4,837 nucleotides of DNA from Escherichia phage CBA6: sequence record KM389299.1; one strand, 5' to 3'. The notes beneath the pieces were generated by a model. That model had not been told where the DNA came from. It ran no database searches and worked only from the letters and a program-made list of their open reading frames with translations. This document shows positions 941-977 of this stretch, in pieces; positions within the stretch are counted from its first letter, which is position 1; each line of letters opens with the position of its first letter. The translations under genes and the position numbers were made by a program.

Positions 941-977
941 CAACATTATGAGTCTTCATAGAGGGTTCATAATGTTG
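941..977 (+). repeat. 16-bp hairpin (941-956 pairs with 962-977, loop CATAG) with three G-U/U-G wobbles
   Basis: Pairs traced base by base: c941-g977 through t956-a962, including g952-t966, t953-g965 and t955-g963 wobbles. These are only pairable as RNA from the + strand. Confidence 0.5.

Follow-up and report, generated by a model that had tools for sequence, protein, structure and literature searches.

A 37-nt hairpin at positions 941–977 of the Escherichia phage CBA6 window (the whole 4,837-nt stretch analysed, from record KM389299.1) lies far beyond chance expectation and is, judged from its sequence and homologues, a genuine + strand RNA helix. We conclude that it would form one helix of an undescribed, unannotated, multi-helix structured non-coding RNA of ~400 nt, predicted to span ~700–1096 and here termed RNA-A. 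Sequence comparisons show that the hairpin is maintained on the + strand, that its length is fixed in all homologues bar that of phage PhaxI, that its loop is free to vary and its 3′ strand is frozen, and that it sits after a tRNA-shaped domain. Taken alone, the hairpin is an ordinary kind of object; it is also a reliable flag of a structured + strand RNA array under strong selection.

By Megablast, the window comes from the tRNA region of a Kuttervirus phage (Ackermannviridae), and its positions 650–1200 match Escherichia phage ECML-4 and Salmonella phage STML-13-1 with 100% identity. ARAGORN and Rfam identified five + strand tRNAs downstream of the hairpin (Met, Trp, Asn, Gln and Tyr), and RNA-A is located between a small ORF and an array of tRNA, tRNA-like and tmRNA-like genes. 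Kuttervirus phages, including CBA120, Vi01 and SFP10, rank with the most intensively studied for biocontrol and therapy, and ~2 kb beside their tRNA genes has been left blank or been given spurious small ORFs and a wrong-strand “terminator”. Indeed, the CBA120 record has no annotated gene or CDS over the ~2.1-kb equivalent of window positions 648–2815, and other records fill this RNA array with many hypothetical ORFs of 30–70 aa, which look spurious. Record OR122688 carries a – strand “terminator” feature on the homologous hairpin (locus L002, 3944–3976) beside a 276-nt – strand hypothetical CDS (L002, 3980–4255).

Sequence, fold and conservation of the hairpin

On the + strand, 941–977 reads CAACAUUAUGAGUCUUC-AUA-GAGGGUUCAUAAUGUUG; this sequence was read directly and then folded, whereby 941–957 pairs with 961–977 in an uninterrupted 17-bp stem capped by a 3-nt loop. 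The earlier note had described a stem of 16 bp; reading and folding confirmed the hairpin itself, and C957–G961, if counted, adds the 17th pair. The three wobble pairs that it listed, G952·U966, U953·G965 and U955·G963, are exactly as it stated, and the three A·C mismatches that it expected on the opposite strand are seen in the – strand fold, where they open the inner third of the stem. The minimum free energy (MFE) of the hairpin is –16.7 kcal/mol on the + strand (z = –6.6, with 0 of 200 shuffles as stable) and –10.4 kcal/mol on the – strand. The stem is A/U-rich, with G-C at 5 and G·U at 3 of the 17 pairs. With G·U pairs allowed, neither strand of the whole window contains another uninterrupted hairpin that reaches 12 bp. 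Across 200 shuffles of the window that preserved dinucleotide content, the longest hairpin typically had 9–11 bp; in one shuffle it reached 16 bp. The hairpin was also present in all MFE folds of the wider contexts 840–1000, 785–1112 and 695–1175.

Among the 247 phage records with the 70-nt block 926–995, its identity is never below 90%; they belong to Kuttervirus, Agtrevirus, Taipeivirus and Serratia phage IME250. RNA-A as a whole occurs in these same groups of Ackermannviridae phages. To compare homologues we used 23 distinct sequences of the 785–1097 unit, with overall identity down to ~72%. All 391 of the 391 stem cells in this set form standard pairs on the + strand compared to 81.3% when read on the – strand, which bears out the + strand folding put forward in the earlier note. 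Stem conservation is near-absolute across four genera, and the flanks diverge to 72–80%. The parts of the hairpin differ in their variability as follows.

941–957, + strand: 5′ arm, bearing every observed stem substitution (951, 952, 953 and 955)
958–960, + strand: loop AUA, which varies freely among relatives
961–977, + strand: 3′ arm, unchanged in every homologue examined
961–991, + strand: 31-nt near-invariant block GAGGGUUCAUAAUGUUGCGUCAAAGGGCAAC (3′ arm plus downstream tail), with C978U in phage SJ3 as its sole change

The 5′-arm changes are transitions only, each exchanging a Watson-Crick for a wobble pair or the reverse (951 A>G, 952 G>A, 953 U>C and 955 U>C), and the 23-sequence set contains 14 sequence differences at these four columns versus 0 in the 3′ arm. 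In the Agtrevirus and Serratia-phage relatives, AG>GA opposite UU shifts the wobble by one pair. The loop differs in both sequence and length (AUA, ACA, UUA, CAUA, CACA, UAAA, UAAU, UAAC and UGAA). Eight extra records picked for low identity (PhaxI, SJ3, ST-W77, MK-13, S115, LPEK22, cp18 and selz) have hairpin differences confined to the 5′ arm or loop; stem changes limited to the 5′ arm recur in PhaxI, SJ3, LPEK22, ST-W77 and MK-13, and a 1-nt deletion in PhaxI, the lone exception to constant stem length, leaves a 15-bp stem. Thus, independent stem substitutions arose on the 5′ arm in at least ~6–7 lineages and on the 3′ arm in none. We read this asymmetry as pointing to a constraint beyond pairing on the 3′ strand and its tail to 991; apart from the SJ3 change, 961–991 is the longest block of RNA-A without variation.

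Covariation analysis had been proposed as a check in the earlier note. The 5′-arm transitions all preserve pairing; because the 3′ arm is frozen, no double compensatory change was seen in the hairpin stem in the 23 sequences or the eight low-identity records. With one arm frozen, a shuffle control is uninformative for the hairpin helix alone, and, lacking double compensatory change, the conservation of the hairpin taken by itself might also stem from a constraint on the DNA or on the sequence as such. The hairpin is not the clearest single piece of evidence for + strand RNA, as had been claimed for it, since the covariation of the adjacent cloverleaf and the reading frame of a tag downstream (both described below) are stronger. 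We infer that the hairpin region is transcribed from the + strand, which also carries every tRNA gene, the covarying cloverleaf next to the hairpin, the tag frame and each of the credible ORFs.

RNA-A and its cloverleaf

The predicted elements of RNA-A, apart from the hairpin, are listed here in 5′ to 3′ order.

700–784, + strand: variable 5′ domain, in 4–5 sequence versions, with hairpins kept by compensatory change
803–821, + strand: conserved 5′ core hairpin GUCAGUG/CACUUGAC, in a nearly invariant block
826–840, + strand: second conserved 5′ core hairpin GGAG/CUCC, in the same block
849–938, + strand: tRNA-geometry cloverleaf directly 5′ of the hairpin, seen in consensus folds and with compensatory changes
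849–855/931–937, + strand: acceptor-like stem of the cloverleaf, 7 bp, GCGUGAU/AUCACGC
858–861/871–874, + strand: D-like arm, 4 bp, after a 2-nt linker
876–879/906–909 and 881–884/895–898, + strand: extended anticodon-like arm with a 10-nt loop
915–919/926–930, + strand: T-like stem, 5 bp, preceded by a 5-nt variable region and abutting the acceptor 3′ strand
938, + strand: C938, at the discriminator position of the cloverleaf
1001–1009/1061–1069, + strand: long-range helix CCUGUUGGU/ACCGACAGG, enclosing a variable domain
1075–1095, + strand: conserved terminal hairpin GCCGGAUGC/GUUCCGGC, likely the 3′ end of RNA-A

Compensation in the 5′ domain is exemplified around 750–765, where CCCC/GGGG, GUCC/GGAC and GCCC/GGGC replace one another, and the variable domain within helix 1001–1069 holds an invariant loop motif, UCUUCCCGGAUUC. 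Across an 84-pair consensus, 99.6% of cells pair on the + strand versus 88.5% on the – strand, and pairing falls to 39–53% in slid-partner controls. Both sides have changed in 14 of these pairs and the observed covariation was reached by 0 of 500 shuffles, where several such pairs in helix 1001–1069 partly reflect a 1-column alignment shift in Taipeivirus and the rest of the signal is largely one genus split with a modest number of independent events. A scan found no promoter or terminator for RNA-A with confidence, and its ends are therefore guesses. In some genomes, tRNA-like cassettes are inserted straight after the 1075–1095 hairpin. A protein-coding explanation of the region was rejected, as only ORFs of 42–80 aa overlap 720–1256 and the homologues have frame-breaking indels (1 nt in the hairpin loop and at 798/818, and insertions of 19–43 nt) that interrupt every small ORF.

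The cloverleaf ends 3 nt before the hairpin begins (849–937, excluding C938). Its acceptor stem, linker, D stem, variable region and T stem all have tRNA geometry, and compensatory changes are found in the acceptor-like and T-like stems and in each segment of the long arm; most of this covariation comes from one Kuttervirus/Taipeivirus split, with few independent events. The Taipeivirus homologues have insertions of ~19 or 43 nt, which sit in the D-like loop. The loops are non-canonical: the T-like loop is CGCUAA or CUGGUAA, and the T-loop and D-loop sequences and 7-nt anticodon loop of tRNAs are absent. ARAGORN made no call on 849–937 even at 80% thresholds, and the Rfam tRNA model gave no match over 780–1100 at E ≤ 10. 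The element was thus rejected as a tRNA.

Rfam was run at permissive thresholds on the whole window, on 640–2820 and on 780–1100. The window matches at E ≤ 10 are tRNAs and otherwise weak, sub-threshold ones; over 640–2820 there are just chance miRNA/snoRNA matches on other hairpins and weak tmRNA matches. No covariance model matched RNA-A at E ≤ 10 over 780–1100, including those of GOLLD, ROOL, YrlA, RNase P, 6S and the group I/II introns. Several resemblances seen by eye were discarded. None of those to group I/II introns, RNase P, 6S, SRP or Y RNA is backed by a model match. The sequence GGGUUCAUAA, shared with P16 of E. coli M1 RNA, has its strands in permuted order and no model match, CACUUGAC as the Ro-binding helix of Y RNAs lacks the bulge in most relatives, and GCUGAUCUUCCCGGAUUC as a tmRNA 5′ end contains a GCUGAU that is not conserved in Taipeivirus; all three appear coincidental.

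E. coli genomes contain no match to 785–1096, and exact-pattern scans of IMG/VR and a metagenome collection revealed no phage groups beyond those already known as carriers. The protein encoded next to RNA-A is 66–69% identical in three divergent loci, L011, L012 and L014. In L012 and L014 this protein shows 66–67% identity, yet the 650–1100 RNA region has 86–87% nucleotide identity; L011 does not contain the RNA region. RNA-A is thus conserved above the neighbouring protein gene, and it fits no described family. Literature searches on non-coding RNAs and transcriptomes of Ackermannviridae, Kuttervirus and CBA120, on phage tRNA-like decoys and on phage tmRNA-like RNAs turned up no description of these elements.

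The mosaic array and its tag template

The 2.1-kb non-coding stretch is a mosaic whose cassettes are present or absent genome by genome. Two homing-endonuclease genes flank the array, one of the HNH type and the other, a probable homing endonuclease, of the PD-(D/E)XK type. The array and its flanks include the following elements.

1106–1170: tRNA-like element with a T arm (GGUUCGAnUCC), without an encoded CCA end
1187–1214: sigma-70-type promoter TTATCA-16-TATAGT, conserved in all relatives (TTGTCA in most)
1222–1484, + strand: unannotated tmRNA-like mRNA module without a start codon, ~380 nt downstream of the hairpin, with its tag frame at 1359–1394
1225–1307, 1711–1843, 1989–2124 and 2497–2590: four inverted repeats with stems of 22–26 bp
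1515–1585, 1587–1713 and 4606–4743: three further T-arm tRNA-like elements, each with an encoded CCA end
2816–3228: HNH homing-endonuclease gene (Pfam HNH_3 in the CBA120 orthologue), its 3′ end overlapping tRNA-Met
3717–4148: ORF of 143 aa for a PD-(D/E)XK endonuclease (Pfam PDDEXK_5, E 7e-26), between tRNA-Asn and tRNA-Gln

The interiors of the inverted repeats are swapped for unrelated sequence in other genomes and the stems are retained; several BLAST breakpoints of the cassette mosaic fall within these 22–26-bp stems. The interior of the 1711–1843 stem carries a T-arm element in some relatives. Each of the four T-arm elements is missing from some genomes, and ARAGORN and Rfam at default settings detected none of them. 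The element at 1106–1170 carries a “tRNA-Ala” annotation in phage EP75, and its acceptor stem shows covariation, from G·U/U·G to G-C/C-G; 1515–1585 has a GAAA tetraloop where the anticodon loop would be. Relative to orf221 of CBA120, the HNH gene has a nonsense change, TAT>TAA, at 3035–3037. The 3717–4148 ORF, probably the second homing endonuclease, is absent in several relatives. Between this ORF and tRNA-Gln, ~370 nt (4150–4520) have no credible ORF, and no other part of the window is as rich in G+C (0.55) or as skewed to A over T; this segment may be a further structured RNA. A Taipeivirus cassette (L018, 5325–5539; L020, 5510–5724) matches Rfam STnc100 at 54 bits, above the gathering score; its site corresponds approximately to window positions 2457–2483, and the window itself has no STnc100 match.

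The tag frame, GCU AAU GAU AAC ACG UUC CUG GCA GUA GCU UAA UAG, encodes ANDNTFLAVA. In the module, a resume GCU codon and a 10-codon tag are followed by UAA UAG, which lies within a hairpin, and beyond it by a pseudoknot-like element and another hairpin. An in-frame TAG lies 7 codons upstream of the tag with no ATG, GTG or TTG between them, so that 1222–1585 contains a resume codon followed by a short initiator-less tag ORF with a hydrophobic end, as tmRNAs do. Relatives encode ANDNAYLAVA, ANDDVVLMAA and ANDSEVLMAA with synonymous codon changes, and ANDNVFLAVA and ANEEMYLAVA occur as further variants; conservation is at the peptide level. The Rfam tmRNA_permuted model aligns over the tag at 20.6 bits, below its gathering score of 47, and ARAGORN finds the element only at 70% thresholds. 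No canonical tRNA-like domain with G3·U70, T arm and CCA was found flanking the module: none of the T-arm elements at 1106–1170, 1515–1585 and 1587–1713 has G3·U70, and L014 lacks all three. The promoter of a T1-like phage leaves ~50 nt before the resume codon, and therefore no 5′ tRNA-like strand precedes it. In phage HY02, an ordinary tRNA directly follows the tag module. The promoter at 1187–1214 is kept even in the Limestone-type locus L011, which has neither RNA-A nor the tag module.

The module is present, unannotated, in 648 phage records, among them FelixO1-like, T1-like-sized, N4-like (Gamaleyavirus) and SSU5-like phages, and at ~150 places in E. coli chromosomes. The single E. coli locus examined is a lambdoid prophage with the tag ANEEMYLAVA, in which the module lies between the Q antiterminator and holin genes. 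Modules outside the window were located in four loci, with the tags ANEEMYLAVA, ANDDVVLMAA and ANDNVFLAVA among them.

L042, 3830–4330: tag module in an E. coli prophage
L043, 1196–1690: tag module
L044, 1180–1440: tag module
L045, 1180–1560: tag module

In papers on tmRNA databases, the phage tmRNAs listed come only from mycobacteriophages, Bacillus phage G and 79 unnamed phage sequences. The tmRNA-derived tag template in the array is widespread in unrelated enterobacterial phages and prophages, and undescribed.

The idea that RNA-A supplies the tRNA-like or acceptor part absent from the tag RNA was rejected, as no complementary acceptor strand was found. The best complementarity between the two RNAs is 13 bp with one G·U, between 792–804 in the 5′ core of RNA-A and 1399–1411 just after the tag stop codons. 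It shows no consistent covariation, and changes there are compensated within the hairpin of the tag RNA. The lambdoid, T1-like, FelixO1-like and N4-like phages that carry the tag RNA are without RNA-A. We regard it as a rather speculative proposal that RNA-A, the tag RNA and the tRNA-like cassettes together make up a phage system that hijacks or reprograms host ribosome rescue (trans-translation) or tRNA processing; under that proposal, the invariant 961–991 strand would be a recognition surface. Should these RNAs target translation or RNA processing in the host, this would be a new, directly testable layer of phage-host interaction.

Proposed role of the hairpin and likeness to known systems

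We consider it probable that the hairpin serves RNA-A as a + strand helix with an architectural or stability role and that its 3′ strand has an additional, sequence-specific role. By analogy, it would be a rigid element beside the tRNA-like domain, serving either as a 3′-trailer-type stem of the cloverleaf that blocks exonucleases or, if RNase P/Z-type processing cuts at the cloverleaf, as the protective 5′-terminal stem of the downstream fragment. The 3′ arm (961–977) and invariant tail (978–991) may also act through their sequence, for instance by contacting a protein or an RNA, and the 3′ arm would be covered by the 5′ strand.

Two other explanations also operate on RNA. The hairpin may be a double-strand-specific processing or binding site, at which RNase III or another dsRNA-binding protein cuts the polycistronic array into units and recognises the 17-bp helix with its tandem G·U motif. 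The fixed length and frozen sequence suit a protein site, and the four 22–26-bp stems in the same non-coding stretch have swapped interiors, as expected of processing stems around cargo. We nonetheless think this unlikely, as RNase III substrates typically have some two helical turns (dsRNA of ~20 bp or more), which a 17-bp stem does not reach, and a symmetric dsRNA binder leaves the frozen-3′/changing-5′ asymmetry unexplained. That asymmetry is what a masking helix or switch would account for, in which 961–991 is the functional single strand and is sequestered by the 5′ arm until opened: every independent stem substitution is in the 5′ arm, which alone changes even though G·U pairs are equally repairable from either side, and the sequestered strand would be the longest near-invariant block of RNA-A. 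Yet a search of the window, E. coli tmRNA and RNase P RNA for a conserved alternative partner found none, E. coli genomes have no match, and a 17-bp helix at –16.7 kcal/mol would be hard to open without a helicase or nuclease, which makes a switch doubtful.

The remaining three explanations have little support or conflict with the sequence and the comparative data. An imperfect palindrome acting in DNA, as a protein operator, recombination site or cruciform, would fit a hairpin whose sequence is conserved and not covarying, in a recombination mosaic flanked by homing-endonuclease genes. It is improbable, since there are three mismatches in one palindrome half and 951 A>G adds an A·C mismatch on one DNA strand, since a variable loop with preserved stem length is RNA-like, since neighbouring helices show true compensatory changes and since the cassette breakpoints fall elsewhere than the hairpin. 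Even less credence can be given to a – strand intrinsic terminator ending a small – strand gene, as implied by OR122688, where the feature covers the homologous hairpin and adjoins the 276-nt CDS. Neither the – strand tail, UCGGCGUGAU, nor the + strand tail, CGUCAAAGGG, supplies a U-tract, a terminator scan did not call the hairpin, the stem is A/U-rich with 5 G-C pairs where a G+C-rich one would be expected, the – strand fold loses its inner third, and the – strand ORFs 980–1174 and 1014–1256 run across a cassette that several genomes lack. The degenerate tRNA-like elements nearby might recommend a chance hairpin or the neutral relic of a decayed tRNA spacer; the z-score of –6.6, the single shuffled window out of 200 that came within one pair of the stem length, and near-absolute stem conservation over four genera with flanks at 72–80% render this barely conceivable.

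For the favoured reading of the hairpin as a helix of RNA-A, the closest parallels are tRNA 3′-trailer or external-transcribed-spacer hairpins and tRNA-linked small RNAs, such as E. coli 3′ETS-leuZ. As in that type, a stable stem-loop follows a cloverleaf discriminator by a few nucleotides on the same strand as the tRNA array. Unlike that type, the cloverleaf here is no detectable tRNA, the hairpin is embedded in a larger conserved fold and is not a transcript end, and, having no U-tract, it is not an operon terminator. It resembles a Rho-independent terminator in being an intergenic stem-loop, and was so annotated in one GenBank record, but differs in its missing U-tract, its A/U-rich 17-bp stem and the wrong strand of the annotation. 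RNase III processing stems occur in phage polycistronic RNAs, for example in the T7 early region, and share with the hairpin a long helix with non-canonical pairs in a multi-gene RNA region; the hairpin is shorter than their typical substrates.

RNA-A as a whole recalls the T4 species 1/2 RNAs (rnaC/rnaD), which are small stable RNAs of phage tRNA clusters with no known function. Both are phage-encoded structured non-tRNA RNAs inside a tRNA region; RNA-A, however, is larger (~400 nt) and has an internal cloverleaf, and no sequence relation is expected. Like GOLLD and ROOL, RNA-A is long, highly structured, phage-borne and tRNA-adjacent, with conserved helices and variable tips, whereas host range, size and the absence of a match to their Rfam models at E ≤ 10 set it apart. 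Finally, the 1222–1585 segment differs from tmRNA in that no canonical G3·U70 tRNA-like domain is joined to it and its score lies well under the gathering threshold (20.6 bits versus 47), and shares with tmRNA the resume Ala codon, the 10-codon tag ANDNTFLAVA, the UAAUAG in a hairpin and an alignment of the tmRNA model over the tag.
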